A stretch of DNA of 64,000 nt from Candidatus Latescibacterota bacterium (lineage in GTDB: Bacteria > Latescibacterota > UBA2968 > GCA-2709665), in assembly GCA_965208835.1 (NCBI GenBank), contig OZ242358.1, positions 3,296,001 through 3,360,000 of the forward strand, written 5' to 3'. The notes under the pieces are model-generated. The model worked only from the letters and a program-made list of their open reading frames with translations, was not told the origin of the DNA and did not search any database. Positions 10,084 through 55,966 of the stretch are shown here, in pieces (positions within the stretch are counted from its first letter, which is position 1; each line of letters begins with the position of its first letter). The position numbers and the translations under genes are program-made.

Positions 10084-10168
10084 ACCGACGCCGGTAGAGC
10101 AAGTATGGTCTGTCCAGCGCGACGTCGAGTTCAGCGACGGGTCCCGGCCCGACCATCGCGTGTTGCTG
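10084..10168 (-). repeat. Degenerate attC-like site
   Basis: ~85 bp between genes, ends CGCGTGTTGCTG on +. Confidence 0.35.
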
Positions 10169-10178
10169 GCGGGGTTCC

Positions 10179-10562
10179 CTAAAGCGGTTGCCCTATGTCT
10201 ATTCGATTGCCATCAGGGTCTGCGATGACGAAGTCCCGAAGACCGTATTGCTGATCGCGCAGTCCCTTGATGATCCGTACTCCCGACTTGCTGAGGTGAT
10301 CGAAAAGCGCATTCGCGTCACTCACCTTCAGGTGCACGACGTTGTGTAACTGTGGCTTCTTGTCACTGCTCAACGAGAGGTGAAGCTCGGCCCGGTCTCT
10401 CTTCATAATCACAAAGCCGACTGGATTTCCGTTCTCGAACGTCTTGCGCATTCCCAACATCGACGCGTAGAATGAAACGGACTTCTCGACATTGCTGACT
10501 GCAATGCAGGGCGCCATGCGCCCTAACTCGACTGAATCCGGGAAATTCGATGAATCGCCCAT
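10179..10562 (-). CDS. VOC family protein
   Basis: FYASMLG...YGLRDFVIADPDGNRIDIG; GGAGG RBS. Confidence 0.9.
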   Translation of the reverse strand: MGDSSNFPDSVELGRMAPCIAVSNVEKSVSFYASMLGMRKTFENGNPVGFVIMKRDRAELHLSLSSDKKPQLHNVVHLKVSDANALFDHLSKSGVRIIKGLRDQQYGLRDFVIADPDGNRIDIGQPL

Positions 10563-10788
10563 GAACGCTACCTCCTTTGTTGACCAGAGGATCCGTAACT
10601 GAGGCAGTGCTCAATGCAGGACAATGGCCGGTTTTAGTAACCGAGGCGGTGCTCGGATCGATGATCGGGCCGGGTGTTACTTCGAAAGATGTCGAGAACT
10701 GCTCGCTGTTTCTGGTTACGCGACGTCGTGATTGCGCATTCTGTCCGGTTGACTCCGATTGCCCATTCGGGATTTTGAGAATCCCTAC

Positions 10789-10813
10789 GAACCTTCCGGC
10801 CTTCTATTACGTC
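10789..10813 (+). promoter_or_regulatory. Putative ECF-type autoregulatory promoter
   Basis: GAACC-N16-CGTC just upstream of AGGAGG and the ATG of the ECF gene. Confidence 0.6.
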
Positions 10814-10829
10814 ATGAAATCAGGAGGAC

Positions 10830-12152
10830 ATGGCCCGAATGCATCCACAGCCGCCCAGAGAACTCGTCAGGCAATCCTTAGTGGGAAACCCCGAGGCGTT
10901 TGTGGCCGTTGTACGTCACTTCGAAGATAGACTGGCGACTCTCATTAGATACTTCGTTGACGATGAAGACGATGCGGCAGACGTGTTTCAGGACACGGTC
11001 CTCCAGGCGTGGGTGACTCAGCACCAGCTTCGGGATCCATCCAGGTTCGGTCCGTGGCTCTTTCAGATCGCGAGAAACCGCTCCCGTGATTTCCTTAGAC
11101 GAAAGCACAGAAGAGAACTGCCGACTTCGCAAAATGAACTGGAGCGTATCCTGAATCAGTCGCGGACAACTACACTCGAACAAGCGGAATCGGTTCGACG
11201 GATCATGCGCGCAATAGAGAAAATACCAGATTTCGAAGCTGACGCCATCAAAGACTTCTACTTCAGAGGACTCAAGATTTCCGAAATCGCAACTCGTACC
11301 GGACGCCCCGACGGCACTATCAAACGCAGGCTTTCAACCGGACGCAATCGAATACGTGATGTACTCGGCGTGTCACCCCAAAGAGGGAGGCCTACAATGC
11401 CGGAAACCGACTCTCAGGGATTTATTCATCGATTTCCTCGAGAACGGCCCACCATACAAATCAACAGATCAGAACGTACACCCTTCTCTGTGGACTGCCA
11501 GGAGCTAAGATGGTGGTTCGCGGTGCCCAAAGTCGACGAGTCGGTGCTCGTCGCAACCTATAGTCCAGACCAGTGGACATTGACGTCGGTGATGAGAATG
11601 GAGGCAACCGGTATCGCCGAGGTCCACGGCGTCGAAGGGATCGAAATCGAGGTCACTGAATCCGATACGCAAACGTCCCTGGCCTGCAGGGTCTGCACAA
11701 TCGTCGGACGTCTCACAGAAGAGAGGGCTCAGTACCTGGCTGTCTTTCAACGAAACGGCAAGTTCAGCGTCGAAACCTTCCTGAGTGAGGCCTTCTGGCG
11801 GGATTCTATGCGGAAGCTTGAACCTCAGGGGTCATTTGACGAGGCGGCGCCCCGGATATTTGCCAGAACCGACGAATCATCTGATGAATCCGGGGCCGGG
11901 AATCACGAGGTCCGAATAGACGGTCGTTTGTTCTCGTGTTTACGGGTTCTTGAGCTCGAGGGAATTCCCGAAGAGCCAGATTCCATCTTCACGGAGAGTT
12001 TCGTGACCTCCGAAGGCCGCACCTTACTCAGGAGACACTACTGCCACCCTGAATGCGAAAACGTCCCCGTCGATCATTCCGTAGAGGTCGATGTGGACGG
12101 AGCCAAATTCGTACATTGGTACGACAATTTGACGGATAGTGCACTGAAATAG
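10830..12152 (+). CDS. ECF sigma-70 factor with C-terminal extension of unknown function
   Basis: Region 2 DAADVFQDT...WLFQIARN; region 4 EIA...GTIKRRLSTGR; ~250-aa extension. Confidence 0.9.
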   Translation: MARMHPQPPRELVRQSLVGNPEAFVAVVRHFEDRLATLIRYFVDDEDDAADVFQDTVLQAWVTQHQLRDPSRFGPWLFQIARNRSRDFLRRKHRRELPTSQNELERILNQSRTTTLEQAESVRRIMRAIEKIPDFEADAIKDFYFRGLKISEIATRTGRPDGTIKRRLSTGRNRIRDVLGVSPQRGRPTMPETDSQGFIHRFPRERPTIQINRSERTPFSVDCQELRWWFAVPKVDESVLVATYSPDQWTLTSVMRMEATGIAEVHGVEGIEIEVTESDTQTSLACRVCTIVGRLTEERAQYLAVFQRNGKFSVETFLSEAFWRDSMRKLEPQGSFDEAAPRIFARTDESSDESGAGNHEVRIDGRLFSCLRVLELEGIPEEPDSIFTESFVTSEGRTLLRRHYCHPECENVPVDHSVEVDVDGAKFVHWYDNLTDSALK

Positions 12153-12216
12153 TGTTGATCCGGGCTCGTTCGCGTTGTCTTTCTGCCGCGGCCGGCATGC
12201 CAGTCGCCGCTGCCCC

Positions 12217-12774
12217 TTATGCGCTTAGAGTACCTTTCATGTCATGCGCGAATCGGTACAGTTCGCCGAAGTCTGCAGACTCGGGACCGAACAGCTCCGC
12301 CGCTCGTCTAAAGTGGACTGTCCGTACTTCCACAATTCTGCTGTTTAAATCCGGATCGGGTCTTTTCACTGTGTTTTGTACCACGTTTGCCCACGATACG
12401 ACCCGAACGTGTTCGGGGTACGGAAAGTGGGATAGCCGGGGGCGGTCGACTCCGGACACGCAGTAGTACATTCCGATCGGATGGAGATTTCCAGGAATGC
12501 TCCCCGTCTCCTCCAACAGCTCGCGGCGCCCAGCCTCCTCCCATGTCTCCCCGGGTTCGAGCGTTCCTCCCGGCAATACCCATTTCCCGTTGGAACGCCT
12601 GGTGGCGAGACAGTGGCTGTCGGAGATAAACGGAATGACATAGGCGGAGCCGCAGATCGTCGAGGCCGATTCCTCTTCAAATCTGCGGAAGTGGACATTG
12701 GGACGAAGCTGCCCCATCAAGCCACTCAGCGTGGGGTATTTCGCGATGATCGTGTCGAAGTGTGTCCCGTCCAT
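12217..12774 (-). CDS. NUDIX hydrolase
   Basis: GGTLEPGETWEEAGRRELLEETG. Confidence 0.9.
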   Translation of the reverse strand: MDGTHFDTIIAKYPTLSGLMGQLRPNVHFRRFEEESASTICGSAYVIPFISDSHCLATRRSNGKWVLPGGTLEPGETWEEAGRRELLEETGSIPGNLHPIGMYYCVSGVDRPRLSHFPYPEHVRVVSWANVVQNTVKRPDPDLNSRIVEVRTVHFRRAAELFGPESADFGELYRFAHDMKGTLSA

Positions 12775-12852
12775 GTTGAGGCCGCATCAGGTTATCCGTC
12801 GCCGCGATATCCACCGCCGGCAAGAGTCGGAATGGAATCCAAAGCGGCGGAT

Positions 12853-13533
12853 TCAAACCTCGCCCCAGCTCTTGAGCAGGTCAGGATCGGCGCCACCGTC
12901 TTCCAGAACGGGGAACAGGTGCGCGTGTTTCATCCTTACGGCCGCATCGCACAACAGCCGCGTATACGGCTTCACGAGCGCACCCTCGCTGATCAGCCAC
13001 CGGCTGAGTTGCTCGTGGCCTCCCGTCACCGCATAGTGCAGTGGGGTCACACGCCAGACGGAGTCGTCGTCCTGTTCTTCGGTCAGCAGACGCGGATCTG
13101 TCTGCAGGCACTGCTTTGCGCGGTCCACGTCCCCCAGATAACACGCCGAATAGATATCTATGACGGATCCCGCTTTAATCAGCATGTCAGCGATTTCGAG
13201 CCTGCGATAGCGCTTCGCGATACAATAGGGCTTAAGGAGCACCGGTATCTCCGCGCGAGTCCGGCCGGGGACATTGGGATCGGCTCCCGCACGTAACAAG
13301 AACCGCACGATGTTTATCCGGTTGCCGCGCGTCGCTTCCCACAGAAACGTCCGATTGTGCCCGCCGCTCTTGGCAAGCAGCAGCGACGGGTCAAGCTCGA
13401 GGTGCCGCTTTACAGCATTCAAATCGCCTCGCCGTACCTCTTTTAATATCTTGTCGATACCGAAGCGGCCGCTGTGTCCTGAGCGCGGCTTGACTTCATC
13501 TCCCCATCCATGGTCGTCAGTCTTCGGGCCCAT
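12853..13533 (-). CDS. Ankyrin repeat protein
   Basis: RTFLWEA...LLRAGADPN; TPLHYAVTGGH; start uncertain. Confidence 0.85.
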   Translation of the reverse strand: MGPKTDDHGWGDEVKPRSGHSGRFGIDKILKEVRRGDLNAVKRHLELDPSLLLAKSGGHNRTFLWEATRGNRINIVRFLLRAGADPNVPGRTRAEIPVLLKPYCIAKRYRRLEIADMLIKAGSVIDIYSACYLGDVDRAKQCLQTDPRLLTEEQDDDSVWRVTPLHYAVTGGHEQLSRWLISEGALVKPYTRLLCDAAVRMKHAHLFPVLEDGGADPDLLKSWGEV

Positions 13534-13652
13534 CGTCTGCGTTCCCGTCAATACCGAAATCAATATTTGATTACGTCCTGCCGTTCGCGAACCGGGACCC
13601 CGGCTTCATAGCCATGCCTGAGCGTTTCGAGAGAAAGCCGAATGGTTCTCAA

Positions 13653-14597
13653 TTACACCAACCGTTTCACCAGACCATAATCCACCAGTTGGCGCACCCT
13701 GTACCCTGCGCCGAAGTAGATCTCCTGGGCCGGGTTGTTCAGTCCTGTATGGAGCGTATTGCGTGCTACACCCCGTTTCTTGAACTCCGCGCACATCAGA
13801 TTAAACAATACCGTACCGATCTTGCCCCGCCGGTAGTCCGGACGCGTCCCGATCCCGGTAAAGCCGCCCCTTCCATCCGTTCCAATGCGGACCGGTCCGG
13901 CAAAACCCACCACCACAGGACCGTCCGTCGCGATCAGCACGGGATTGGGCGGATCACCGTCCAGACTGGACTTTACAGAAGCCTCCCAGCCACCCGGGAA
14001 CAGTGCCTCCATAAACTCACACAGCGCCTTCCGATGTTCTGCTTCGCAAAATCCGAAAAGGATGCCACGAGATCGGTTGTCTTCGATATAGCTCTTTATC
14101 TCATTACGAAGCTCAAATTCCGCGAACGTCGTTTCCATAAACAGACTCACCGACCCGCGGTTGCGGAATCCCTGATTCAGGAAAAACGTATAGGCTGGCG
14201 TCTTCATATCGACGCCTGTCGCGAATGTGATCGGATTGCCCTTGTATCCGATACGCATCTCCGTCTTGCCGCAGCCAGATAGAAATCTCTCCGCGGCATC
14301 CGCGAGCCTGCCCCCAACCCCGATTCGCCGATAATCCGAATCCACGATCAACACGCTCAGGAATCCCGTCTCTTCGACACCGGGCGCGACGGCCAGCACG
14401 AACCCCACAACCCTGCCTTCCACCTTCGCTGTAATCGCTCCCTCCCGGTCAAAGTCCGGATGCGCCAGGACCCGTTGCCGAAAACCCGCTTCATCCATCC
14501 GAAAATCGTATTTCCGGTCTGCAAACGTCCGCTGCCAGAGGTCCATCACCTGCGCCAGGTCTTCGTCTTTCCAGGGTGCAATCGATATCTTGTCCAT
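13653..14597 (-). CDS. Tandem GNAT acetyltransferase
   Basis: VDSDYRRIGVG and TRPDYRRGKIG motif A copies. Confidence 0.88.
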   Translation of the reverse strand: MDKISIAPWKDEDLAQVMDLWQRTFADRKYDFRMDEAGFRQRVLAHPDFDREGAITAKVEGRVVGFVLAVAPGVEETGFLSVLIVDSDYRRIGVGGRLADAAERFLSGCGKTEMRIGYKGNPITFATGVDMKTPAYTFFLNQGFRNRGSVSLFMETTFAEFELRNEIKSYIEDNRSRGILFGFCEAEHRKALCEFMEALFPGGWEASVKSSLDGDPPNPVLIATDGPVVVGFAGPVRIGTDGRGGFTGIGTRPDYRRGKIGTVLFNLMCAEFKKRGVARNTLHTGLNNPAQEIYFGAGYRVRQLVDYGLVKRLV

Positions 14598-14618
14598 ATC
14601 TCCAGTCCACAAATCCGT

Positions 14619-15014
14619 TTAAGTGCCTGGAAGGAAAGCGACGGCTTCGATCTCGACCAGATAATCGGGGTGAGCGAGGCCGCTGACGAATAACAGCGTG
14701 TTAGGCGGGAACGCGTCCGTGAAGAAGCGGTTTCGGACACGGCGAAAGGCATCCAGATGACCGCGATCGGTCAGGTAGGTAGTCAGCTTGACGATGTCTT
14801 CAAGACTCCCGCCGAGTTCCTCCAGGATGGCCTGAAGATTCGCGTAGACCTGGTGAGTCTGCGCCTCGATGTCGCCCTTCCCTACCAGGTTGCCGCCAGG
14901 GTTCAGGGCGATCTGGCCGGCGATGTACACGGTGTCACCGGCCTTTGCGACGTGTGAATACCCCACCCCCACCGTCGAGTGTACGCTCGCCGGATGTATA
15001 ATCTCACGGGCCAT
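14619..15014 (-). CDS. RidA/YjgF family protein
   Basis: YSHV...YIAGQ...PPNTL...LVEIEAVA. Confidence 0.92.
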   Translation of the reverse strand: MAREIIHPASVHSTVGVGYSHVAKAGDTVYIAGQIALNPGGNLVGKGDIEAQTHQVYANLQAILEELGGSLEDIVKLTTYLTDRGHLDAFRRVRNRFFTDAFPPNTLLFVSGLAHPDYLVEIEAVAFLPGT

Positions 15015-15290: not shown

Positions 15291-15309
15291 CCCGAACACG
15301 GCCATTATC

Positions 15310-15400
15310 CCGGTGTATCCTGGTAATCCGCAGTTTAATCGCCTTTATCAACTTGCACATAATGGCATTAACGTCCACGAAAACATACGAATCCTGGTTA
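15310..15400 (+). mobile_element. Partial copy of the 197-bp MITE
   Basis: GGTGTATCCTGGTAATCCGCAGTTTAATCGCCTTT...CGAATCCTGGTTA matches the other two copies. Confidence 0.75.
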
Positions 15401-15808
15401 GTTTCTGCCGCTCAATCTTCCGCCTATCCAGGCCATCGGTATGTACGCGCCAACCAGATCCACGACGTAAAACAGGACGGGCCCCCCTATCATGAAGGCG
15501 TTGGCGATGCCGCCAATCAGGAAGAGTCCGCCAACCACCATCGCTGCCGCCACCCTGCAGCTTGCGGCGATGAGCGCGGCCAGATACGCGCCCACAAGGG
15601 TCCCCAGCGCATGTGCAAGGAACGGGAAAATGAAGTGCTTGAACTCAAACAGGTGCATGGAAGACTTGATGGATTCCACGTTGGTCACGTCGACGCCATC
15701 GGGAGGCGGAATGACATATGGCCCTACCGTGACCAGAATCATATTGGCTATACTGCCGACAACACAACCAACGATAACGGCAAGGACGTTCTTCAGCTTG
15801 GACTTCAT
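15398..15808 (-). CDS. Hypothetical membrane protein
   Basis: About four hydrophobic segments; FIFPFLAHALGTLVGA; GAGGTGA RBS. Confidence 0.8.
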   Translation of the reverse strand: MKSKLKNVLAVIVGCVVGSIANMILVTVGPYVIPPPDGVDVTNVESIKSSMHLFEFKHFIFPFLAHALGTLVGAYLAALIAASCRVAAAMVVGGLFLIGGIANAFMIGGPVLFYVVDLVGAYIPMAWIGGRLSGRN

Positions 15809-19535: not shown

Positions 19536-19621
19536 TTCTAACGTTCTGTGGGGCTGCGAGCCTACGAAGTAGGTTGCTCGAGTGCGAGAACGCACCGTAA
19601 CTAGGCACAGGCGTGTTGTGC
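19536..19621 (-). repeat. attC-like site (86 bp)
   Basis: Minus strand GCACAAC...GTTAGAA, CTGTG/CACAG arms, internal hairpin. Confidence 0.55.
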
Positions 19622-19633: not shown

Positions 19634-20425
19634 TCAACAGCTTCCGTACTCCGGATCAGAGAAGGTTTGCACTCGATACCAATACCGGTATAACTCGCTG
19701 AAACCATACTTGCGTTGCAGAGCCAGAGCTGGCTCGTTGTTAGCCAACACCTGCAGGTATGCCAGACGGGCTCCCTGCTCAAATCCCCACTTTAGCCGTG
19801 CCTCAAGGAGCCGACGGCCAAAGCTCTGTCCCCGATGCTCGGGATCTACCAGCAAGTCAAAGAGACCTATGATTGAGCCCGAAACAACTGCGCGGGCGCA
19901 ACCTACGGATTTACCATCAGTCCGGGCGATAACATAGGCCGACGGAGTGGAGGTGGCGTTGAGCAGACTGCGAAATACCTCAGAGTGCTGATTGCGATCA
20001 GACAGACCTCTCCAGGTTTCGAACCACTCATCTGTTGCACATTCGTATAGCGATACGGCAGAGGAGCTATCGGGACTGGCCTCAAGTCGCTTGGTTTGAA
20101 CCAGCGTTTCGGCGTCACTGGAGTATTGACGCTGGGCCAATGTCTCGTCCAAATTCCCAGGTTTACAGGTTGGAAAAATCTTGAAAAGACAAGGTAGCGA
20201 TGCCCGCGCGTACGCAGCTTCACAATGAACCAGCTTCTCCTGGAGCTGGGTTGTGGATCCGTACAGCGGGACTACACAATTGGCACGGCGACTGTATCCC
20301 TCAGACATTCGAACGATCCAGCCGTCGTAGAACTCTGTTTGCAACGCGGGTAGCCCGTTCAACGCGGCCTCTTCCAGCGTTGCGACGAGCTCTGTGTTGT
20401 TCGTTGAATCAATAGCGTTCGTCAT
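19634..20425 (-). CDS. GNAT acetyltransferase
   Basis: GYSRRANCV; VDPEHRGQSFG; YLQVLANNEPA. Confidence 0.9.
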   Translation of the reverse strand: MTNAIDSTNNTELVATLEEAALNGLPALQTEFYDGWIVRMSEGYSRRANCVVPLYGSTTQLQEKLVHCEAAYARASLPCLFKIFPTCKPGNLDETLAQRQYSSDAETLVQTKRLEASPDSSSAVSLYECATDEWFETWRGLSDRNQHSEVFRSLLNATSTPSAYVIARTDGKSVGCARAVVSGSIIGLFDLLVDPEHRGQSFGRRLLEARLKWGFEQGARLAYLQVLANNEPALALQRKYGFSELYRYWYRVQTFSDPEYGSC

Positions 20426-20427
20426 AG

Positions 20428-20525
20428 GAATAACATCACGCCAGTTTGCAAACCTGCGAATGTGGGTTGCCGAGGGCCAGGCGCCGACAGGCGCGGAGCT
20501 CAAATTGCTGCGCGGCAGGATGTGG
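20428..20525 (-). repeat. Degenerate attC-like site
   Basis: AACATCACGCC/GGCAGGATGTG arms; AACCTGC..GTGGGTTGCCGA core. Confidence 0.5.
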
Positions 20526-21543: not shown

Positions 21544-21630
21544 GCATTACGTTTAGCCGCGCACGAATCCAGGCGTGGTGACGTCCAGGCGCCGCGTCGC
21601 CGAATCAGGGAACGAGCGTACCTGTTGAAG
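21544..21630 (-). repeat. Degenerate attC-like site (87 bp)
   Basis: GCATTAC...GTTGAAG on +. Confidence 0.35.
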
Positions 21631-23301: not shown

Positions 23302-23306
23302 CTGGG

Positions 23307-23395
23307 ATATAACGCTCTCACAGGCCGCGAATATGCAGGGTTAGGCAATCTGAGAGAGACGAATGTCCGAAGCCGCCGCCAGAAGAGTGATAGGC
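23307..23395 (-). repeat. Degenerate attC-like site (89 bp)
   Basis: ATATAACGCTCT...AGAGTGATAGGC arms. Confidence 0.45.
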
Positions 23396-27727: not shown

Positions 27728-27830
27728 GGCGAACATTATGTTGGCTTGCGACTCGCTTAGCTGGTTGCCGATGCGCAAGGCGACTGACGAGTGGCGCACA
27801 CGGCTCTGAACATCAATTGGACGTGTGTTC
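27728..27830 (-). repeat. Degenerate attC-like site
   Basis: GGCGAAC...GTGTTC; core GCGACTCGCTTAGCTGGTTGCCGATG shared with 44044. Confidence 0.5.
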
Positions 27831-28270
27831 TACTTGTGTGTTTCTATTGACTTTATCAGTAAGCCAATCTTGTCGTCGTATCCGGCAACAAGCCTGGGAA
27901 GTGTTTTGATTTCAGCCCAAAAGAAATCGAACGGATGGATAAGAGATCCGTCCTCCGAATGCTCTCCGTAACGCCACGTTTCTTCTGTTGGCCCTTCCAC
28001 AGACAGATGGTAGAACCAGCGATGTTGCAGTTCATCGCTCCCGCAAAACCTCATGTCCATTGTATCCCGCGCAAGGAATCGCACATATCTGAGCGCGGTC
28101 AATCCCGTCTCCTCTTCTGCTTCTCGCATCACCGCACCCCGAGGATTCTCTCCCGGCTCAATCGTCCCCGCGGGAACCTGAATGCCGGCTTCCGAAGACC
28201 CGGGTTGCGTAAAGAGGAGTAGCCGGCTCCCATTGGTGATATATGCGTAAGCTCTGTGACGGGTTTTCAT
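27830..28270 (-). CDS. NUDIX hydrolase
   Basis: AGTIEPGENPRGAVMREAEEETG. Confidence 0.9.
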   Translation of the reverse strand: MKTRHRAYAYITNGSRLLLFTQPGSSEAGIQVPAGTIEPGENPRGAVMREAEEETGLTALRYVRFLARDTMDMRFCGSDELQHRWFYHLSVEGPTEETWRYGEHSEDGSLIHPFDFFWAEIKTLPRLVAGYDDKIGLLIKSIETHK

Positions 28271-32781: not shown

Positions 32782-33759
32782 TCAATCTATGCCTTCGATT
32801 GCAGCCTCGCCCATACGAATCGCCACATGCGGGAGAGCGAGTATACGGTCATCCAGTTCCCAGGTTTTCCGATTGGGCGATCTCGGGCTCCATTTCCGGT
32901 GGAGTTGGCAGAGTCGTCTGGCATACCAGGCCGCGAAGATGAGAGGGAGTGCGGTACGTTCATCTTCGGAGGGAGGCCGTACTGAGAAATACCCCGCCAC
33001 GAATCGCTGCATTTCCTCATCTGAAAGCTGTCGACCCACGGTCCCGATCAGCCATTGAATCCGGACCATCACCACGTCCACAAGCGCCGGAGCGAAGTGA
33101 GCCGAATTGAAGTCGGTGAACCGAATCTCACCAGACGGGGAAGTGATCGTATTCCAACTTCGCACGTCTCCGCGACACAAGAGCCAACGGACGTTCATCC
33201 TGTTCGGCGTGTTGTTCAACTGTGCTCGAAGCCGGGTGACCGCATCTGCCGCGTTCGAGGAGAACGTCGTCCTCTTGCAATACTCGAGAGCGTCAGAGAT
33301 GTACAGCCGCGCATCCTTGACTTCTGAACTGAAGATTGGAAAGTCTTCGCTCGCATCGTGAACCCGTGCGAGAGCCTCCCCCACGTTGCCGAGCGTATCG
33401 ACGCGGTCTACAACCTCTCCTTCCAGGAAGCTCTCGACCGAAATCACCAGGTCTCGGACGGATTTGTACAGCCGACCATCCGTGGTTGGACGGATGTCGG
33501 GACACGGCGCGCCGCGCTCGGCAAGGTGTCGAACGAATTCCACAATGGTTTTGGGATGGACCGAACCGTCCCAACCCGGATTCACGCGGAACACAACGCG
33601 TCCGTCCCGCAGACTGTCACAAAAGAAGACGCACTGTGAGTTCGCCCTGCAGACGTTGTTCACTTCCAGATCCCAGAATCGCTTGCAGAGATCCACAATC
33701 TCTCGCTGGTCGGGCAGCGGGCCCGTTTCGTCTCTGGATCTGGGATATATGGCTTCCAT
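32782..33759 (-). CDS. APH/homoserine-kinase-like phosphotransferase
   Basis: GEALARVH, CRGDVRSWN, FTDF. Confidence 0.8.
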   Translation of the reverse strand: MEAIYPRSRDETGPLPDQREIVDLCKRFWDLEVNNVCRANSQCVFFCDSLRDGRVVFRVNPGWDGSVHPKTIVEFVRHLAERGAPCPDIRPTTDGRLYKSVRDLVISVESFLEGEVVDRVDTLGNVGEALARVHDASEDFPIFSSEVKDARLYISDALEYCKRTTFSSNAADAVTRLRAQLNNTPNRMNVRWLLCRGDVRSWNTITSPSGEIRFTDFNSAHFAPALVDVVMVRIQWLIGTVGRQLSDEEMQRFVAGYFSVRPPSEDERTALPLIFAAWYARRLCQLHRKWSPRSPNRKTWELDDRILALPHVAIRMGEAAIEGID

Positions 33760-33867
33760 TGGTTTTCCGGGCCCCGAACCGGCCTTAGCGGTTACGCGAA
33801 GGGCGTAAGATCTAAGCCGTGGGCGGACGTGTCTGTTGAAGCTGTGCACCCTGCTTCCGCCCGGATT

Positions 33868-35941: not shown

Positions 35942-36138
35942 TAGCCTTAATTTCACAAAAATCGCAACGTGGCATGGCGACGAAACTTTCCGAAACGGGC
36001 TGAAATGGTCGTTAGGAAGGACGCTTATTCAGTTCACGTCCAGCGACCTGGTGTATCCTGTAAATCCGCAGTTTAATCGCCTTTGTCTACGTGCATATTT
36101 CCGGTCTTACGTCCCCGAAAAATTTCGAATCAAGGTTA
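35942..36138 (+). mobile_element. 197-bp MITE, copy 2
   Basis: TAGCCTTAATT...AATCAAGGTTA; same length as and aligns with 4030-4226. Confidence 0.8.
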
Positions 36139-36141
36139 GAA

Positions 36142-36720: not shown

Positions 36721-36759
36721 CCAGGACTTCCTTCCTGATCGACCGGCATCGCCTGGCCT

Positions 36760-36875
36760 ACGACATTCTTGCCACCGGCGAACCCACTTATCGTAGCGAA
36801 TGTGGGTTGCGCGAGGTCGCGGGAGCGAACGCGACCGGCGCTCAGGCGGATCCGTTATTCGGCGTGTTGTTCTAC
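36760..36875 (-). repeat. Degenerate attC-like site
   Basis: GCGAACCCAC...GTGGGTTGC core; ends GTGTTGTT. Confidence 0.4.
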
Positions 36876-38771: not shown

Positions 38772-39026
38772 CGTTACTTCCTCAATTAATGTTGATTCTC
38801 TCTTCCCATCGCAGACATTGTCCTTGCGGGCTGCGAACCTGCGTCAGCAGGATTGGCGAAGTGGCGAAATCATCGAGCCACAGCCCGTCGTTTTGCACGT
38901 TTGCGACGCGCACCCTCAGGCCAAGCTCTAAGGTGGCTGAAATACAATGCACGCCCGAAGGGTTTCCGGCTCTCCGGCCATTGTACCCCGGGGACGCCTC
39001 TCAGTCATTTGGCCTTGCGCTACTTA

Positions 39027-39871: not shown

Positions 39872-39957
39872 GTGTAACATCCTCGCCGTGCGCGAACTGC
39901 CGCAGGCAGTTGCAGCGAAAGTGCCTGAGCAGCGACCCGCGCCCGGTCGTGTTAGCC
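39872..39957 (-). repeat. attC-like site (86 bp)
   Basis: Minus strand GGCTAAC...GTTACAC; CCGTGCGCG/CGCGCCCGG arms; AACTGCC-GCA-GGCAGTT hairpin. Confidence 0.6.
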
Positions 39958-39985: not shown

Positions 39986-40534
39986 TCAGAAATGACTCGG
40001 ATTGTCGATGCGAAACGCAAGTTGTGTGATCTTGCCTTCCCCGAATACGCTCTCCTCAACTTTATCCAGCTGAGGAACTCTTGTGAAGCCGACCTTTGTG
40101 AATAGATTGATGCTGGGCTGATTATGTTCATATATACCTGCGACTATGTAATTCAATCCAAGTTCGCGGAAGATATAGTCCACGGAGAGACGAACGGCTT
40201 CCGTCCCGTATCCCTGGAATCTATATTGCTCGTAAATCCAAATCCCCAAGTCAGGCTCTCGGTGTGCAGGAGCTAGACTGGAACGACCAATGGGCGTTTG
40301 ATCCTGCAAATTGACAATCGTCGCATTGAACCGCTGTGGGGGTCTGTCAGGGTTCGTGAAATTTGCCAGGAAGTATTCGTACCCCTCATCCTCGTGTCTG
40401 GAGTTAAAGTTACGCTGTGTTTCCGAGTCCTTCCAAGTCTCGTAGAATGGCCTGTAGTCCTCATGTAAGAACTCCGCAAGGGCGACTTCCCTCCCTCGTC
40501 TGTAAAAGGATCGTGTCGAGACCGCTGAGCACAT
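39986..40534 (-). CDS. RimJ/RimL-type GNAT acetyltransferase
   Basis: YRFQGYGTEA, NQPSINLFTKVGF; start uncertain. Confidence 0.85.
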   Translation of the reverse strand: MCSAVSTRSFYRRGREVALAEFLHEDYRPFYETWKDSETQRNFNSRHEDEGYEYFLANFTNPDRPPQRFNATIVNLQDQTPIGRSSLAPAHREPDLGIWIYEQYRFQGYGTEAVRLSVDYIFRELGLNYIVAGIYEHNQPSINLFTKVGFTRVPQLDKVEESVFGEGKITQLAFRIDNPSHF

Positions 40535-40554
40535 GGTCATCCTCAGCCCAGGAG

Positions 40555-40700
40555 CGTGTCGCAAAAGACGACGCTCCACGAATTTGCCCTGCTGACGATT
40601 GTTACTTTCAGACCCCAGAATCGCTACAGAGATCCCTAATTTCTCGCTGGTCAGGCAGCGCGCCCGTTTCGTCTTTGGATCTGGGATATTGGGCTTTCAT
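40555..40700 (-). pseudogene. 5' stub of a paralog of the phosphotransferase at 32782-33759
   Basis: MKAQYPRSKDETGALPDQREIRDLC vs MEAIYPRSRDETGPLPDQREIVDLC, then frameshift and truncation. Confidence 0.85.
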
Positions 40701-40814
40701 TGATTCTCTCAGCCCGGAACCGGCCGTAACGGCGCATTGTAGGTAACGTTTTGTGGATTAATGAACCGGCTTAGCCGGTCGGCGAAACCCAGGCCGCGTG
40801 AAGGCGGCGCAGCA

Positions 40815-40976
40815 TTAACCCACTGTAATCGGTCGTGGAAACTCCGTGAACTGGGCGCCTACAATAGCAGTGTGATTCAGTGAAAAATATCGCCCCGTTT
40901 GATGACTGAGCAGCAACCCTTCGCTCCCAAATTCTTGAGAAACAAACCGATCGTCACATCGTCCATACGTCTTCAT
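40815..40976 (-). pseudogene. Truncated PqqD/RiPP-recognition-element protein (53 aa)
   Basis: FVSQEFGSEGLLLSHQTGRYFSLNHTA; AAGGGG RBS; below the ORF-track cutoff. Confidence 0.6.
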
Positions 40977-43943: not shown

Positions 43944-44043
43944 CCAACGGTTCCGATTTGCTGTTATCGAGTTCTGTGCCTGATTTGGCAATTGGGGTGG
44001 TTGTGTTCTTACGACACGTTCGTGTTATCGTCGTTACTGCTTT

Positions 44044-44100
44044 CGAACTCGCTAATCGAGTTGCCGATGGACAAGGTGGCGTAGCCCGCAGCCAGCCGTT
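44044..44100 (-). repeat. Core of the attC-like family
   Basis: CGAACTCGCTAATCGAGTTGCCGATGGACAAGG, similar to 27748-27780. Confidence 0.45.
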
Positions 44101-44108
44101 GCTTTTTT

Positions 44109-44615
44109 TTACGAGATCGTCCCCTGAATCCGAATGGTTCCCTCCAACAGTATCTCCCCGTGCTCGTCCTTCCGCTCGGCCTGCCAGTATCTTCGCGCCC
44201 TCTCGAACATCGATGCAAGGGTTTCCGACGCTTCGAAGTAACTTATCAGGTTCATATCGGCAGTGAACGCGCGCGCGCATTCAAGAATCTCGACATCATA
44301 CAGTTCGCACGCTTCCCTGTGGGAGTCGAATCGTCTGGCCGCACTCGCTTCCGGCCAGAGAAAGAGGCATTCAAACCGACTTGGCCTATTTGGAAATTCC
44401 CGTTGCCGAACGGTCTCCCACGCGAGTTCCAACATCGCACGACCTGTCTCGGCGGCATTTGGAACCGTTACCGCAGGAGAGCCCGTTTGGACTTCGATCA
44501 GGACCTGACGCATCAGATAGTTCTTGAAGTCTCCGGGCCTTACAACGGTTCCGGAGCAAAGGCCGGACTTCGCCGACCAATACAGGTGAGTTCCCGGTCC
44601 GATTTCACGAGACAT
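44109..44615 (-). CDS. DUF2441 family protein
   Basis: ELAWETVRQREFPNRPSRFECLF...ARRYW...EILLEG. Confidence 0.75.
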   Translation of the reverse strand: MSREIGPGTHLYWSAKSGLCSGTVVRPGDFKNYLMRQVLIEVQTGSPAVTVPNAAETGRAMLELAWETVRQREFPNRPSRFECLFLWPEASAARRFDSHREACELYDVEILECARAFTADMNLISYFEASETLASMFERARRYWQAERKDEHGEILLEGTIRIQGTIS

Positions 44616-44791
44616 TGAATAGGATCTCGCCCACGCGGTTACAGGTTGCAATATGGTTTTTCAGGGCTGCCACGGTATTGTCTTGCACCAATTCACGCCA
44701 GAGAGCCCTTGCGTGAAACGTCCGGAGAACTTGCCGCAGGCAAGCTGGAAAAGGGCTGGGACGCCAAGAGCCGCAAGCGCTGTCGGTTCGA

Positions 44792-44945
44792 TCATACACG
44801 GGCTTGAAGAACGCCATGGGCGTCAGAACCGTTGTCTGATTGATCGAATTGTATCGTACAGTCAGAAAAGCCAGCATCCAGAATCAGCCTGAGATTGGTT
44901 TCCACACTGAGTCTGATATCATAGTTCCATTCTCCCTGTCTGCCT
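44792..44945 (-). pseudogene. Probable C-terminal fragment of a methyltransferase
   Basis: WNYDIRLSVETNLRLILDAGF resembles MTase C-termini; no SAM motif. Confidence 0.35.
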
Positions 44946-50224: not shown

Positions 50225-50280
50225 CGTCAGATTCTCCCGAGCCTGATTCGTAATTGCCCTCTTGTCTGGCCGCATGTCTC

Positions 50281-50368
50281 GCCACGATATACAAGCTTGC
50301 GAACCGTGAAGGTGGCTGCCGACAACCTGAACGGCAACGGCGCCGCAGCACAAGACGTGCTGTTAGCG
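50281..50368 (-). repeat. attC-like site
   Basis: Clearly homologous to 55876-55966; ends TGTTAGCG. Confidence 0.6.
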
Positions 50369-51264: not shown

Positions 51265-51310
51265 AAATAACTCGCCATTCTCCCACCGATTCATCACGTC
51301 CAGTTGAAAC

Positions 51311-51400: not shown

Positions 51401-51404
51401 CGCT

Positions 51405-52031
51405 TCACTTCGTCAGGAAATTCCTGCCGTACCGATATGCGATCTCGAGATTCCTCGCCGTGTTGCACGATGTTGCAAAATGATCCGCCATCCCAGAGAG
51501 AAGTGCAAACTCACAATGCTTCACACCCGCGTCAGGGCGGAGGCGATCATGGGTGTATAACCGCCTCATGGCTTCAGCAATTCCGGACTCTACCAATCCC
51601 TCTAAGGTATTTCCGACAGGACAGAGAACGAGCGCTCTTTCCATGGAGAGGCGTGGAAACGGATGGGTCTCCATGGCGAGTTGGTACTCGTAGGCGTATC
51701 CGCAGACCCAGACCCGGTCGAACCATCCCTTCAACTTCGCCGGACAGTCGCTCCACCAGACCGGAAAGACAAAGGCCAGACCGTCTGCCCTGCTGATCTT
51801 GCTGTGTTCGACTTCCACGTCCGACGGTATGGGGAGGGTGGGGCGATTGCCCTGGACGTTCATCTCGCGAGTGTACTCATCCGGAGTCATCTCGCATTTG
51901 AAGTCCATTTCGTACAAGTCCCCGATCTCGTAGGAATGTCCACCGTCGTCGAATCCTCGACACAATTCGGCCAATACCTCCCCGGTAAAAGACCTCCTCG
52001 TCGGATGCGCGAAGACAATGTATGCGTGCAT
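51405..52031 (-). CDS. NAD(P)H-dependent oxidoreductase (flavodoxin-like fold)
   Basis: FAHP..RSFT, FPVWWSDCPAKLKGWFDRV. Confidence 0.92.
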   Translation of the reverse strand: MHAYIVFAHPTRRSFTGEVLAELCRGFDDGGHSYEIGDLYEMDFKCEMTPDEYTREMNVQGNRPTLPIPSDVEVEHSKISRADGLAFVFPVWWSDCPAKLKGWFDRVWVCGYAYEYQLAMETHPFPRLSMERALVLCPVGNTLEGLVESGIAEAMRRLYTHDRLRPDAGVKHCEFALLSGMADHFATSCNTARNLEIAYRYGRNFLTK

Positions 52032-52105
52032 CAAGGGACCTCCGCCGGCAGCGGTGCAGGCCACGGCGCTGGACAACACGGCGCTGTTTTCGAAAGTAGT
52101 CTCAA

Positions 52106-52873
52106 TCAGGCATGCGCCGTAACGACCGGCTGAAAGTAACCTGACTGTTCAGGCGTATGCCAGGCGACTTTCGAGAATCCGGCGGACTCCAGGGCCAGAG
52201 TGAGCTCCTTGCGCCTGATTGCCCGGTAGCGGGTCCTTAGCTCTCTTACCTGCCATCCATTCGGTGCCCGGGTCATGATGAATTGCCGAATCAGACAGGT
52301 ATCTGAATTCTTCGACCAGTCCCAGACCTGAAACGTAATGACCTCGCGCTCCGAGGCACCCTGAACATTCGCACCCTCAAACGACGGTTTTTCCGCGAGC
52401 AACCGATCGTAATCTCGAATACTGGCAACAAACAGTCCATCAGCCTTCAGTGTGCGCCTGATGCTTCGGAGAGCGGAAGTCAGGTCTTCATCGGTCAGGA
52501 GATGAGGCAGTGAGTTATCGCAACTGATCACAACGTCGAACTTGCGGGCGAAGGCACGTTCCACTTCCCGAACATCGGAAACGGCGAACTCAATCTTCAG
52601 ACCCCGGTCGGCTGCTTCTGATTTCGCCCTGGCAATCGCCTTCGGGCTGAGATCTGACGCGAAGACTTCGTATCCCTGCTGCGCCAGGCCAATTGTCTGG
52701 GTGCCGATTCCACATGAACAGTCCAGGACAAGCGACGCACTTGCCGTCGATTCACGTTGAATCAACCGATCCAGTACGCACGACTGCCGTTCGATTGCCG
52801 ATTCCCACTCCGCGTAGACGTGATGGTAGTCAGCAGCCAGGTCATCGTAAAAACGTCTGACGTCTTCGCTCAA
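52106..52873 (-). CDS. Class I SAM-dependent methyltransferase
   Basis: VLDCSCGIGTQ, DNSLPHL. Confidence 0.92.
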   Translation of the reverse strand: MSEDVRRFYDDLAADYHHVYAEWESAIERQSCVLDRLIQRESTASASLVLDCSCGIGTQTIGLAQQGYEVFASDLSPKAIARAKSEAADRGLKIEFAVSDVREVERAFARKFDVVISCDNSLPHLLTDEDLTSALRSIRRTLKADGLFVASIRDYDRLLAEKPSFEGANVQGASEREVITFQVWDWSKNSDTCLIRQFIMTRAPNGWQVRELRTRYRAIRRKELTLALESAGFSKVAWHTPEQSGYFQPVVTAHA

Positions 52874-52950
52874 CGTCGGCGACTCCCTCGAATGAGTCTA
52901 TTCCCGAAAACGTCCCCACGGGCATTGAACTTGCTGAAGGCAAGTCAGAT

Positions 52951-53035
52951 CGGAAACGCGAACGCGCCGGAGCCGCAGTCCGGCGTGTCAGCGGTAGCCG
53001 CTTCCTGCCGCCTTTATCGCTACGCGATGTTGGCG
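52951..53035 (-). repeat. Degenerate attC-like site (85 bp)
   Basis: CGGAAACGCG...CGCGATGTTGGCG. Confidence 0.4.
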
Positions 53036-53039
53036 CGGA

Positions 53040-53816
53040 TCAAGTGCCTGCCGCAGCTGACTTTTCCTGCATTTGATCTTTGATCCATTCCATCCACTCA
53101 ACCAGTTGAGACAGATATTCGTCTACTTCGTTCTCACTCGGCTGTACGGGATGAACATAGATTTCAGAGGTTCTTCTCAGAAAACCTTGCCAATCCGGAG
53201 AGACCTCTTCCAGCAGCGGAAGAACCTCGGACCCCTTGAGGGAATACCTGCTTCCGCTTGCCATGAGGAGATAACCGCCACCCAGCACGGCCAGGCGTCC
53301 GAGCTTGCGGAGGCGCAAAGAGGTCTCTTCAGGAAGGGAGAAATCGGTCGTGTTCTCCTCCAGCAATCCCGCTGCAAATCGGACCAGTACCCTGGGGTCG
53401 CGGAACGCGCCAATGGGATCGGGGGGTGGGATTTCCATCCCTTTGATCAGATCCTCTCCCCAGACAAGTGTGGCATCGTGGCAAAGTCGCGTTGCGACCT
53501 CGGAAACCCTGTCTACAGATCGCGGTGTGACAAGCCCGTGAAGTGAGAGGAACTCTCTACGAAGGGATGCCTCGGATTCCCGTAGCCGGAACCTGTCCGC
53601 ATCGGTGACGGCGTCAATTACAAATGGATGCAAGTCAAGATCGGAGACTTCGGGTACCGCTTCGTTCCGATGAACACTTCCCCACACGTAGACTGAGACA
53701 AGCCGTTCATCGAATAGGTCGCAATACACCGAAACGTGGTCCACCACGGCGTCTCTGAAGAAGCCATCCGCGATGGAGTCGAGATTGACAAACCTGTCGA
53801 GATCTTTCCCCGCCAC
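53040..53816 (-). CDS. Nucleotidyltransferase domain protein
   Basis: VYVWGSVHR....SDLD pol-beta motif. Confidence 0.75.
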   Translation of the reverse strand: MAGKDLDRFVNLDSIADGFFRDAVVDHVSVYCDLFDERLVSVYVWGSVHRNEAVPEVSDLDLHPFVIDAVTDADRFRLRESEASLRREFLSLHGLVTPRSVDRVSEVATRLCHDATLVWGEDLIKGMEIPPPDPIGAFRDPRVLVRFAAGLLEENTTDFSLPEETSLRLRKLGRLAVLGGGYLLMASGSRYSLKGSEVLPLLEEVSPDWQGFLRRTSEIYVHPVQPSENEVDEYLSQLVEWMEWIKDQMQEKSAAAGT

Positions 53817-53891
53817 GACACCTCCTTCACGCTCGGGCGACACGGTGGCCTTCACACGAAGATGATCACCGTCGATGCCAAATGGCGCCCT

Positions 53892-54659
53892 CTAATTTGG
53901 CCGCTCTTTTTGCGCTTCAATCAGGAATTTCCTTGCCGTGAACGCCAGCTCATTGCCGCTGTCAAGTCGGTGTTTCAGCCTCAATAGATGCTCCACGTGC
54001 GTTTCGACAGAAAACCCGGGTACAAGCCAGGGAACAGCCTTCAAGTAGTAGACCACGGCGCCCACGTCGGCGAAAGCCAGCCGGCCAGACCAGTCTTCGG
54101 CATTGAGCATAGTCAGGCCTTTCGTTCTCAATTGAGCCACGTTCCTTTCGAGGGTGGATCCGGGCGATTGCGGTTTCACGTCAAACGCTGCCAGCAAGTC
54201 ACAGGCCCATAACCCGTGAACCTGCTGGGTCAGGAATGTACCGCCCGGCGTGAGAATACGGGCAACTTCATTGGGATTGAATGCGGAATGGCGATTCAGA
54301 ACGAGATCGAACTCGCTATCGGAAAACGGCACTGGATCGCGATTGGATAATCGAACATCGACAACTCTCGCTCCCAATGGAACGAGACGCTCTGTTGCCA
54401 GCTTGCGGTTCGGTGCATATTCCTCCGTTGCCACAACCACTTCAGGCCAGAATTCCTGTAAGTTCAGGAACCGCTCACCCCCGCCTGTCCCCATGTCAAC
54501 GACAGATGAGCATCGGCGCATGAGGTCAGCGGCTCGAGAAGAAAAAGACCATGGAGCTTGCTCTTCAAACATCCTGCCATCCAGCCAGGAAAAATCCCAT
54601 CCCGAGAAGAGCTGTTCCTCTTCACATCTCCAACTATCGACAAGCTTGTCTAGACTCAT
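53892..54659 (-). CDS. Class I SAM-dependent methyltransferase
   Basis: FSGWDFS, DMGTGGGE, FDLVLNRH, FLTQQV. Confidence 0.92.
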   Translation of the reverse strand: MSLDKLVDSWRCEEEQLFSGWDFSWLDGRMFEEQAPWSFSSRAADLMRRCSSVVDMGTGGGERFLNLQEFWPEVVVATEEYAPNRKLATERLVPLGARVVDVRLSNRDPVPFSDSEFDLVLNRHSAFNPNEVARILTPGGTFLTQQVHGLWACDLLAAFDVKPQSPGSTLERNVAQLRTKGLTMLNAEDWSGRLAFADVGAVVYYLKAVPWLVPGFSVETHVEHLLRLKHRLDSGNELAFTARKFLIEAQKERPN

Positions 54660-54736
54660 ATTGCGCGTTATCCGGAAACGGTGTCGGTTAATTGATTGAC
54701 CACGCCCTCATTTTTTGTTTGAAGTTATGCCCTGTT

Positions 54737-54822
54737 GCCTGACGGTCCGGAACTCACGAACCCGTCGAAGCCGGATTGGGCGGAGGCCGGGACGGCCGAA
54801 GCGGTGGGTACTCGTGTTATGC
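54737..54822 (-). repeat. attC-like site (86 bp) overlapping the upstream stop codon
   Basis: Minus strand GCATAAC (TAA is the stop of 54817-55860)...GTCAGGC. Confidence 0.6.
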
Positions 54823-55860
54823 GAAAGCGAGTTCGCTGGATACGCTATCCGGTTCTTTCGAGACCACCTCGGCCCATATGGATGCTGTTTGATCCAGTAA
54901 CAACTTGAGTTGAGACTCTTGTAGATCCTCATTGAGGAGCCACGAACCCGTTTCACCACTTCGAACTGCATACCACGTATAGGCAAACAGGACATCGCGT
55001 TTGTCATCGAGCTCCGTGATCTCCTCGCCCACGGCCAGGCGGGATGGATACGACGTGACGTGCCGCTCTGCAACATCAGCGGGAGCCCTGGCAAACCTTG
55101 CTTCTACCTCATCCGCGGTAAGAGAAAGCAGTCGGATGAGGCGATTCGCAATTCCTTCTTCCTGGTGCTCGTGAGCCAGAACGGAAAAACGGGTGAAGAC
55201 TCTTCCGAAGGACCGATCTCCGTGCCCCCACCTTTCCATCAGATATGGGACTGTCACACGCGCGAGTTCCTGAATAGAGATCCCTGCCTCAATCAGACGA
55301 CCTGCGTCCAGATATGACTGAACCCGCTGAGCGAGAGCGGTTACACGTCTGACTCGCTCGATTTGGCGCGCATGGACAACCGTTGGGTTAAATCGACCAT
55401 CGGAGAGCAGCACAACAAATGCGGGAGTATCGCAATCCTCAGACCCGTGAACTGATTGACCGAGATGGCTCTTGTCAGTCGCATGGAAAGTTCTTTCATC
55501 GGCCATCAGTTCATCCAGGTGACGCTTGCCTTTGATCAGGTCGTCCGCCTCGTCGGCTGTAAAATGAAGTCGCCCAGCGTCAACAGACGTCGGCCACGTG
55601 TCTCGAGCCCATTCTCTCGTGATGGCTAACGCAAGCTCGTCCACTCTTTTTGGAAGACTGCTGTCCGCCTCCCTGGACGCAATGTAGATGAGGTCTATAT
55701 CAGATAAAGGCCACGCCACTCCTCGACCAATGCTACCCCCGAGAATTACACCCGCAACGCCAGGAGCAGATGCGATCCGTTCGATGGCTTCAACGGTTCG
55801 CTTCTGGAGAACAAGCTCCCAGTTTTCCAGGTGTGCCCGGAAGAGATCCGCCCTGAACAA
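54817..55860 (-). CDS. Nucleotidyltransferase domain protein
   Basis: GGSIGRG....SDIDL. Confidence 0.75.
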   Translation of the reverse strand: MFRADLFRAHLENWELVLQKRTVEAIERIASAPGVAGVILGGSIGRGVAWPLSDIDLIYIASREADSSLPKRVDELALAITREWARDTWPTSVDAGRLHFTADEADDLIKGKRHLDELMADERTFHATDKSHLGQSVHGSEDCDTPAFVVLLSDGRFNPTVVHARQIERVRRVTALAQRVQSYLDAGRLIEAGISIQELARVTVPYLMERWGHGDRSFGRVFTRFSVLAHEHQEEGIANRLIRLLSLTADEVEARFARAPADVAERHVTSYPSRLAVGEEITELDDKRDVLFAYTWYAVRSGETGSWLLNEDLQESQLKLLLDQTASIWAEVVSKEPDSVSSELAFA

Positions 55861-55875
55861 ATCGAACTCACTTTC

Positions 55876-55966
55876 GCAAAACGTCTCGCCGGATTGCGAA
55901 CCCGACCAGCCGGTTGCCGAAGGCCAGCGCGGCGATGGCGCCGCAGCGCAAAACGTGTTGTTATCG
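55876..55966 (-). repeat. attC-like site
   Basis: GCAAAAC...GTTATCG; homologous to 50281-50368. Confidence 0.6.

Follow-up and report, generated by a model that had tools for sequence, protein, structure and literature searches.

Genes and elements of the window

The region described here (the window) is a 64-kb stretch of contig OZ242358.1 from an uncultured Candidatus Latescibacterota bacterium, with 55% G+C and about 75 open reading frames (ORFs), nearly all of which are on the minus strand. At least 50 kb of it is occupied by an array of single genes, at some of whose junctions lie copies of a palindromic element that resembles the attC sites of integron cassettes:

13568–64000, minus strand: cassette array of about 50 ORFs, nearly all on the minus strand (ORF list and Pfam)

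The array ORFs match GNAT, small methyltransferase, APH-type kinase, NUDIX, glyoxalase, cupin and nucleotidyltransferase families in Pfam, and such families are the usual content of integron cassettes. An element at the right-hand end is cut by the end of the window, and thus the array continues beyond it. The elements read RYYYAAC ... GTTRRRY on the plus strand, which is the bottom strand, and 11 of the 16 window elements end 0–46 nt before the stop codon of the gene to their right, i.e. on the 3' side of a minus-strand gene.

The family was characterised with covariance models and a comparison set of 80 loci (L001–L080) centred on relatives of the last gene of the window (HAD), with 10 kb on each side. 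Nineteen of these (L001–L019), from metagenome-assembled genomes (MAGs) titled Candidatus Latescibacterota or Gemmatimonadota, share 66–95% protein identity with the window HAD gene, and L020–L080 are unrelated loci that total about 1.0 Mb. MAFFT misaligned the 3' ends of untrimmed elements, and therefore the models were built from trimmed sets (A4 and A6). Model R1, from alignment A4, covers the 5' half of the element (R', spacer, L' and an internal hairpin; 45 positions, 9 pairs). Model R2, from A6, is full-length (91 positions, 23 pairs) and has 21 seeds, four of them from the window (55876, 39872, 50279 and 19536). A simple scan for hairpins by regular expression was too loose for use. The window elements are as follows:

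13568–13652, plus strand: family element with R' eroded to TGATTAC; R1 E = 3.6e-6 (R1 seed), no R2 match; abuts the stop of gene 13653–14612 (0 nt)
19536–19621, plus strand: family element; R2 E = 2e-9 (seed); 12 nt from the stop of gene 19634–20503
20428–20525, plus strand: family element with R'' eroded (GTG for GTT); R1 E = 1.1e-7 (R1 seed), R2 E = 6.9e-5 over 20434–20512 (non-seed)
23307–23393, plus strand: doubtful, strongly eroded copy; R1 E = 0.27, R2 E = 0.23
27728–27830, plus strand: element well preserved in its 5' half and divergent in its 3' half; R1 E = 7e-7 (R1 seed), R2 E = 0.68; ends at the stop of gene 27830–28270
36758–36875, plus strand: family element with a long hairpin-1 loop and R' eroded to GAC; R2 E = 3.3e-7 over 36758–36860 (non-seed)
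38810–38898, plus strand: family element; R2 E = 5.9e-6 over 38813–38898 (non-seed)
39872–39957, plus strand: family element; R2 E = 1.4e-12 (seed); 28 nt from the stop of gene 39986–40579
40741–40831, plus strand: family element with an 11-bp L stem (fold) and R'' eroded to GTA; R2 E = 3.2e-7 (non-seed)
44023–44105, plus strand: shortened element, hairpin 1 intact and L' region reduced; R1 E = 3.7e-7, R2 E = 7.7e-4 (partial, 44042–44095); 3 nt from the stop of gene 44109–44651
44713–44792, plus strand: weak, eroded copy; R2 E = 0.019
50279–50368, plus strand: family element with R' eroded to CAC; R2 E = 1.6e-11 (seed); direct repeat D15; close relative of 55876–55966
52905–52993, plus strand: weak copy; R2 E = 0.025; counterpart at L014:19234–19322 (E = 0.0085)
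54737–54822, plus strand: family element; R2 E = 9.9e-7 (non-seed); R'' overlaps the stop of gene 54817–55860; 19 nt upstream, at 54718–54724, is another R'-like box, in eroded form (TTTGAAG)
55876–55966, plus strand: best window copy; R2 E = 1.8e-16 (seed)
63953–64000, plus strand: one more element, of which the window end leaves only the 5' half; R1 E = 2e-5 (non-seed), R2 E = 0.0056 (truncated)

In the window, R1 gave 13 matches at E < 1e-3, all on the plus strand, of which 12 were seeds and one (63953–63997) was not. With filters off and both strands searched, R2 found 10 copies at E < 1e-3 and 15 at E < 1, again without exception on the plus strand; six copies were non-seeds (40741, 36758, 54737, 38813, 20434 and 44042). 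Among the 80 loci, R1 had 34 matches at E ≤ 0.1. Thirty-three of these are on the strand equivalent to the plus strand of the window, all in closely related loci, and the remaining match, in L049, is weak (E = 0.046) and on the other strand. Over all 81 sources, R2 had 62 matches at E ≤ 0.01 (21 of them seeds), comprising 10 in the window (plus strand) and 52 in 14 of the loci L001–L019 (minus strand), with the same orientation relative to genes in 62/62 and no match at this threshold in L020–L080.

An initial annotation of this DNA had proposed a lineage-specific, branched type of attC, mostly eroded. The family is indeed confined to the window and 14 of the 19 closely related MAG loci, its stems covary, its copies follow co-oriented single genes, and, of the roughly 60 gene junctions of the window, only about 15 retain a recognisable copy. 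The individual coordinates given there fared unevenly. Elements at 19536, 39872, 54737, 55876, 50279 (previously 50281), 36758, 20434 and 44042 are recovered by R2 at E < 1e-3, and the overlap reported between one element and a stop codon holds for GTTATGC at 54816–54822 and gene 54817–55860. Those at 44713–44792, 23307–23393 and, as a full element, 27728 are weak, at the R2 values listed above, the last having a 5' half well matched by R1. The element formerly drawn at 52951–53035 was mis-delimited and is placed by R2 at 52905–52993. For 21544–21630, 10084, 17923 and 33770 there is no support at E ≤ 10, and 21544 and 33770 retain motif fragments by eye. The copies at 13568–13652, 38813–38898, 40741–40831 and 63953–64000 are additional to the earlier list.

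Structure and covariation of the elements

In 59 distinct copies, the consensus on the model strand consists of R' (RYYTAAC), a 7-nt spacer starting with GT, a 9-nt L' ending in CG, and hairpin 1, which is followed by a linker (e.g. GCCGAAGGCCAAGG), a second small hairpin, a purine-rich GNAG, L'', a 4-nt spacer (ACGT, TCGT or TGCT) and R'' (GTTRRRY). For instance, the best window copy has R' GCAAAAC, a 7-nt spacer, L' CGGATTGCG, hairpins 1 and 2, L'', a 4-nt spacer and R'' GTTATCG, and its first hairpin is located as follows:

55899–55915, plus strand: hairpin 1 of element 55876–55966 (AAC, variable stem, loop, variable stem, GTT), from alignments A4/A7 and pair counts

Hairpin 1 has an invariant AAC/GTT base, then four covarying pairs and often a GNA loop. 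The copies are 74–143 nt long (median 90), the terminal structure above the L stem being variable. The predicted fold comprises an R box, an asymmetric spacer, a 9-bp L stem and a three-way junction with hairpins 1 and 2. In this fold, the "extra hairpin" of the initial annotation is one branch of the three-way junction on the L stem, i.e. part of a branched variable terminal structure.

The stems are supported by covariation. Paired cells amount to 80.7% over the 59 copies, as compared to 30–42% with slid partners, and 0 of 500 shuffles reached the observed covariation score. In the L stem, 82.5% of cells are paired and 8/9 pairs change on both sides; in hairpin 1, the corresponding values are 87.9% and 6/7, which bears out the compensatory changes reported for the hairpin stem in the initial annotation. 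Similarly, in a MAFFT alignment of the seeds only, unfitted to the model, both sides change in 7/9 L-stem pairs and 5/7 hairpin-1 pairs. These two-sided changes argue that the extra hairpin is real and has been selected as a stem. The three pairs of the R-box triplets are standard in 51/57, 54/57 and 56/58 distinct copies, and pairing between the four outer R positions of one element is poor, as is to be expected in arrays. Hairpin 2, when treated as fixed columns, is only 62% paired in A6, and it was omitted from the model due to register shifts. An extension of hairpin 1 by GC/GC pairs and a bulged G, mimicking the classical L box, was considered and rejected: its second pair is non-covarying by eye (not formally counted), and the bases in question covary as part of the L stem.

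The two strands of the element are not equivalent. C-GNA-G motifs number 131 on the model (bottom) strand as compared to 28 for its complement, and 44 of 58 elements have a lower predicted folding energy when the bottom strand is folded. GNA loops closed by a C-G pair are very stable DNA mini-hairpins.

Gene order and breakpoints between genomes

BLAST comparison of the window with L001–L019 reveals modular blocks, each about one gene long, whose order differs between loci. Whether gene-content breakpoints coincide with the GTT of the elements had been named in the initial annotation as the decisive test, and homology between genomes does break at R' AAC/GTT. For instance, at 55876–55966 the homology of the window and L004 runs up to ...GCAAAAC|, after which each has a different element, while the window and L001 differ before the AAC and agree from the next base (breakpoint 55882|55883). 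In all, 64 BLAST block ends, belonging to 24 distinct elements, map no more than 8 nt from the C of the R' AAC, most often 1 nt past it; only 3 block starts lie at R''. Where the distal flank alone is common to two loci, 30/35 element pairs are unrelated (identity ≤0.54; background median 0.41). Additionally, the HAD block common to at least 10 loci ends at 63956–63965, the start of element 63953–64000. A crossover at the gene-proximal R'' or inside hairpin 1 was also considered and is represented by few cases: offsets of 26–30 occur in 4 block ends, and one junction (window 54763 relative to L004) starts inside hairpin 1. The position of the breakpoints therefore suggests that crossover takes place at the distal R' AAC/GTT, between G and TT, and that cassettes are exchanged as units.

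The outer R-box positions are consistent with this. R'' is fully complementary at these four positions to the R' of its upstream neighbour in 6/15 adjacent pairs, as compared to full complementarity within an element in 7/57 (Fisher p = 0.022). A cassette that has moved via a circular form should carry 5' bases that complement its own R'', and the match between neighbouring R'' and R' boxes is in line with that.

Interpretation as attC-type sites

Overall, the elements are probably attC-type sites of a very large chromosomal cassette array in an uncultured bacterium, with an unusual conserved side hairpin and an atypical geometry. To judge from sequence comparison, they function like attC sites in their position, boxes, stems and crossover point. 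In the mechanism that this would imply, every element belongs to the minus-strand gene whose stop codon it follows, the plus strand being the bottom strand, and this bottom strand would fold as single-stranded DNA into the R box (RYYYAAC/GTTRRRY), an internal loop of 7/4 nt, the 9-bp L stem and the three-way junction. The strand biases of the GNA loops and of the folding energy hint, indirectly, at recombination in such a folded form. A tyrosine recombinase, for which a tentative candidate is described below, would cleave the 5' R' box between its A and C. Strand exchange with another folded site, or with a platform site, would then result in the excision, insertion and reordering of cassettes. 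The conserved branched top, the GNA-looped branches and the lopsided spacer may together take over the choice of strand that is made elsewhere by bulged bases.

Several observations weigh against this interpretation. The first concerns geometry. In Bouvier et al. (PMC2727003), extra-helical bases on the R''-L'' arm, consisting of a G in L'' and a T 6–8 nt away, are called common to all known attC sites, and VCR2/1 (VCR, Vibrio cholerae repeat) is given a 31-nt R'-L' arm, a 34-nt R''-L'' arm and a central spacer of 5 nt on each arm. In the predicted pairing of the present elements, the R''-L'' arm is free of bulged bases, most copies have an unbroken L stem, and the R'-L' arm is longer by 2–4 nt (about 3) in 54/59 copies, with a 5' spacer of 7 nt and a 3' spacer of 4 nt in 48/59 copies each. 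A caveat about non-canonical spacer geometry in the initial annotation was thus well placed. A single canonical control (n = 1), the aadA1 attC of plasmid R100 in the orientation used for the window, has T38 and G45 bulged on its 3' arm, and R2 scores it at only 6.3 bits, i.e. leaves it unrecognised. R100 was used instead of a classical aadB cassette, for which a tblastn search of plasmids with the adenylyltransferase-like protein of the window gave only distant non-integron matches.

The second concerns the recombinase. An integron integrase (IntI) with the signature extra domain was not found in the window or the 80 loci. None of the 75 window ORFs has a Pfam match to Phage_integrase or another tyrosine recombinase, only 1 of 110 ORFs of 270–480 aa in L001–L019 has a Phage_integrase match, and a tblastn search of the window and the 80 loci with IntI1 of R100 returned only this one gene and three fragments of it.

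The remainder concern the array and the counts drawn from it. A recognisable copy is absent at most gene junctions of the window. Where the gene-proximal flank alone is common, only 3/7 element pairs are clearly related (0.61–0.89), and at 6 elements a total of 8 BLAST blocks extend from the distal flank across the element as far as R''; these run-through blocks could stem from similarity at the level of the family. At 59–63 kb, blocks that are only 19–50 nt apart, without an element between them, are reordered between genomes, and another process must therefore also rearrange the region. Finally, the pair and spacer counts over 59 copies use an alignment fitted to the model, and several loci are close relatives, such that the counts do not represent independent events.

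A recombinase and an attI-like site in a related locus

The gene returned by these searches, L007:1176–1988, encodes an Xer-like tyrosine recombinase, the sole one found near the arrays. Its closest relative of solved structure is VchIntIA (2a3v, E = 5e-41), to which it aligns in two blocks, with 27 aa where that chain has 69. To IntI1 it has 34% identity, with 49 gap positions concentrated at the IntI-specific insertion, of which about 40 residues are lacking, and its score on TIGR02249 is 206 bits, under the cut-off of 265. The proteins of its family are widespread, about 376 aa long, and have an extra N-terminal domain of about 95 aa matching no family; those at 55–65% identity carry names from Dehalococcoidia and Clostridia-type organisms. 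The L007 copy is frameshifted relative to P0001.

The gene is transcribed toward the cassettes. The 131 nt that follow its stop codon form a conserved segment, present twice in L007, also in L008, L017 and L010, and in weak form in L004. Similarity among all these copies ends at G|TT, beyond which four different continuations are found (GTTACAC, GTTAGCA, GTTAAGT and GTTATCT). The first of these begins the first L007 cassette and is the exact reverse complement of R'' (GTGTAAC) of that cassette's own attC. Motifs similar to the hairpin-1 base, CGAAC-GTTCG and TAAC-N-GTT, are also present in the 131-nt site. An attI site would be expected to have such a fixed end and varied continuations, and so would the end of an element that targets attC.

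These features raise the possibility, at present doubtful and in line with the alternative named in the initial annotation (the site of a different recombinase), that the array is an integron-like platform run by a non-IntI tyrosine recombinase, with the 376-aa family seen in L007 as the candidate. The substrates of such an enzyme would be the elements and a platform site immediately 3' of the gene that encodes it, and the absent bulges and the extra AAC/GTT hairpin would be adaptations to it. The lack of the IntI-specific insertion, the sub-threshold TIGR02249 score, the attI-like site and the cassette-ward transcription, an arrangement known for Treponema integrons (PMC3607928), are all consistent with this. 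However, there is just one full-length copy in the 19 related loci, frameshifted, the others being C-terminal fragments, and neither the 376-aa gene nor the 131-nt site was found in the window. As the family is widespread, it could also be an independent mobile element that inserts at attC, which would likewise give a fixed end and varied sequence, and a classical IntI could lie beyond the stretches covered. It is unlikely that the system is a sister to integrons, in which cassettes with bulge-free folded sites are moved by an Xer-like, arm-domain-bearing recombinase devoid of the IntI signature domain. Equally unlikely is the corresponding assignment of roles, with the lopsided spacer and the AAC/GTT side hairpin serving recognition and strand choice, and the platform site lying downstream of the recombinase gene.

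A role at the level of RNA is improbable. In that case the elements would be parts of 3' untranslated regions whose hairpins stabilise or punctuate cassette transcripts, and recombination would involve the outer boxes only. The elements do lie 0–46 nt after stop codons, on the transcribed side, and covarying stems would form in RNA as in DNA. However, the GNA-loop bias favours the non-transcribed strand (131 as compared to 28, above), and thus the transcript carries the complement; no T-run follows the hairpins in the element sequences inspected, and a Rfam scan of the window gave no family at gathering score. Moreover, the base of the hairpin, with its invariant AAC/GTT, echoes the R box, and this suggests a role involving protein-DNA contact. 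That the elements are ordinary intergenic repeats (REP- or MITE-like palindromes, or terminators) with no role in cassette movement can be all but dismissed: they are short, GC-rich, palindromic, intergenic and numerous, as such repeats are, yet they are strictly oriented to genes (62/62), have a fixed relation to gene ends after stop codons, coincide at their AAC with gene-order breakpoints between genomes, have R boxes that complement those of neighbouring elements, and show no target-site duplications or transposase-type ends in the sequences inspected.

Comparison with known systems

With attC-type sites as the preferred reading, the elements can be set beside several known systems. On plasmids, pdif modules are gene modules flanked by 28-bp double-stranded XerC/XerD sites. 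If the Xer-like candidate acts on the present elements, both systems would have gene modules bounded by short sites for Xer-type tyrosine recombinases. The elements here are structured palindromes of 85–100 nt with covarying stems and AAC/GTT boxes.

The closest likeness is to the attC sites of sedentary chromosomal integrons (VCR). Shared features are the imperfect palindrome bounded by RYYYAAC/GTTRRRY, the R and L stems, the position after promoterless co-oriented ORFs, the crossover at the distal R box, the conservation of sequence within a lineage and a large branched top, a structure described for large attC sites such as VCR (PMC2727003). In contrast to VCR-type sites, the family lacks the R''-L'' bulged bases, its opposite arm is about 3 nt longer, one of its top branches is conserved with an invariant AAC/GTT base adjoining the L stem, and no IntI accompanies it in the window or the 80 loci.

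Clusters of attC sites without an integron integrase are known as CALIN, by the IntegronFinder definition, and contain an average of 5 sites according to PMC4889954. The present array is similar in having attC-type sites and no integrase within the sequence examined; it differs in being far larger, and an integrase may lie beyond the 64-kb window or the 10-kb flanks in the relatives. In Treponema, integron integrases (described as such in PMC3607928) are transcribed toward the cassettes. The L007 recombinase likewise points cassette-ward, with a putative integration site beyond the 3' end of its gene, but it is without the IntI-specific insertion and has an extra N-terminal domain.

A literature search, which was not exhaustive, found no publication that joins integrons or attC with Latescibacter*. 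Surprise should be limited, as taxon-specific conservation of attC is established (PMC8352920) and both lineage-specific attC families and integrase-free arrays are well known (PMC8352920 and PMC4889954). What deserves attention is that the asymmetry of the arms is reversed, that a side hairpin with AAC/GTT is conserved, and that an attI-like site accompanies a recombinase other than IntI.

Studies of recognition between integrase and attC rest on few proteobacterial sites, where the choice of strand depends jointly on the bulges, the central spacer and the top structure. At least 59 distinct natural sites, from a lineage that has received little study, that keep the R and L boxes and the crossover, without bulges, with reversed asymmetry and with an added branch, offer a test of such general structural rules. 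Should the recombinase prove to be the Xer-like enzyme, IntI would not be the only enzyme to run cassette platforms. Additionally, software trained on classical attC sites may overlook arrays of this kind or count too few of them.

Other junctions and repeats in the region

Several junctions in the array have a different appearance. Window 59435–63960 consists of four gene-sized blocks (Kelch, a 501-aa ORF, isochorismatase-like and HAD) that are 19–197 nt apart with no recognisable attC, and whose order and copy number differ across L001–L019. At 33601–33791 and 40543–40732, genes for an APH-type kinase and a GNAT protein share about 60 N-terminal codons and a 5' leader, with 75–84% nucleotide identity; the stretch runs into a hairpin-1-like fragment, which suggests that recombination or duplication took place here without involvement of the R' box. 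Similarly, a 52-nt stretch that spans the start codon and leader of two genes is 92% identical between 54634–54685 and 59387–59438, and at 59413–59436 the leader is truncated and fused directly to the stop of the Kelch gene, forming a junction without attC.

Other repeats are found in and around the array. One of about 190 nt (70–92% identity) occurs at window 4029–4228 (inverted), 15297–15423 and 35946–36141, and in L001 (3 copies), L003, L004 (3 copies), L012 and L014. Read on the coding strand, the repeat closes with two hairpins of terminator type that have T-runs after them, and in L004 it sits exactly at the expected attC place of a cassette encoding a metallo-beta-lactamase fold. Candidate identities for this repeat are a small RNA, a small gene and a further type of boundary element. 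Upstream of unrelated genes, a leader-like segment of about 500 nt is present in two copies (3443–3951 and 58655–59243; 74–92% identity in pieces), and the first copy contains a run of CGAA-bearing units with an 8-nt period at 3472–3587. The motif CCCTTCGACAGGCTCAGGGA lies in intergenic DNA at window 81–109, 8134–8162 and 62167–62195, and also inside the top structure of family attC sites in L002 (around 4690–4744) and L006:574–696, where it lengthens the element to at least 123 nt.

Within the related arrays there are genes for DDE transposases (PF13701) at L008:14174–15538, L017:1782–3167 and L009:17269–18648. In the window, the minus-strand array is interrupted at 10830–13570 by a plus-strand unit of four genes, encoding an extracytoplasmic function (ECF)-type sigma factor (440 aa) and three ORFs that match no family.

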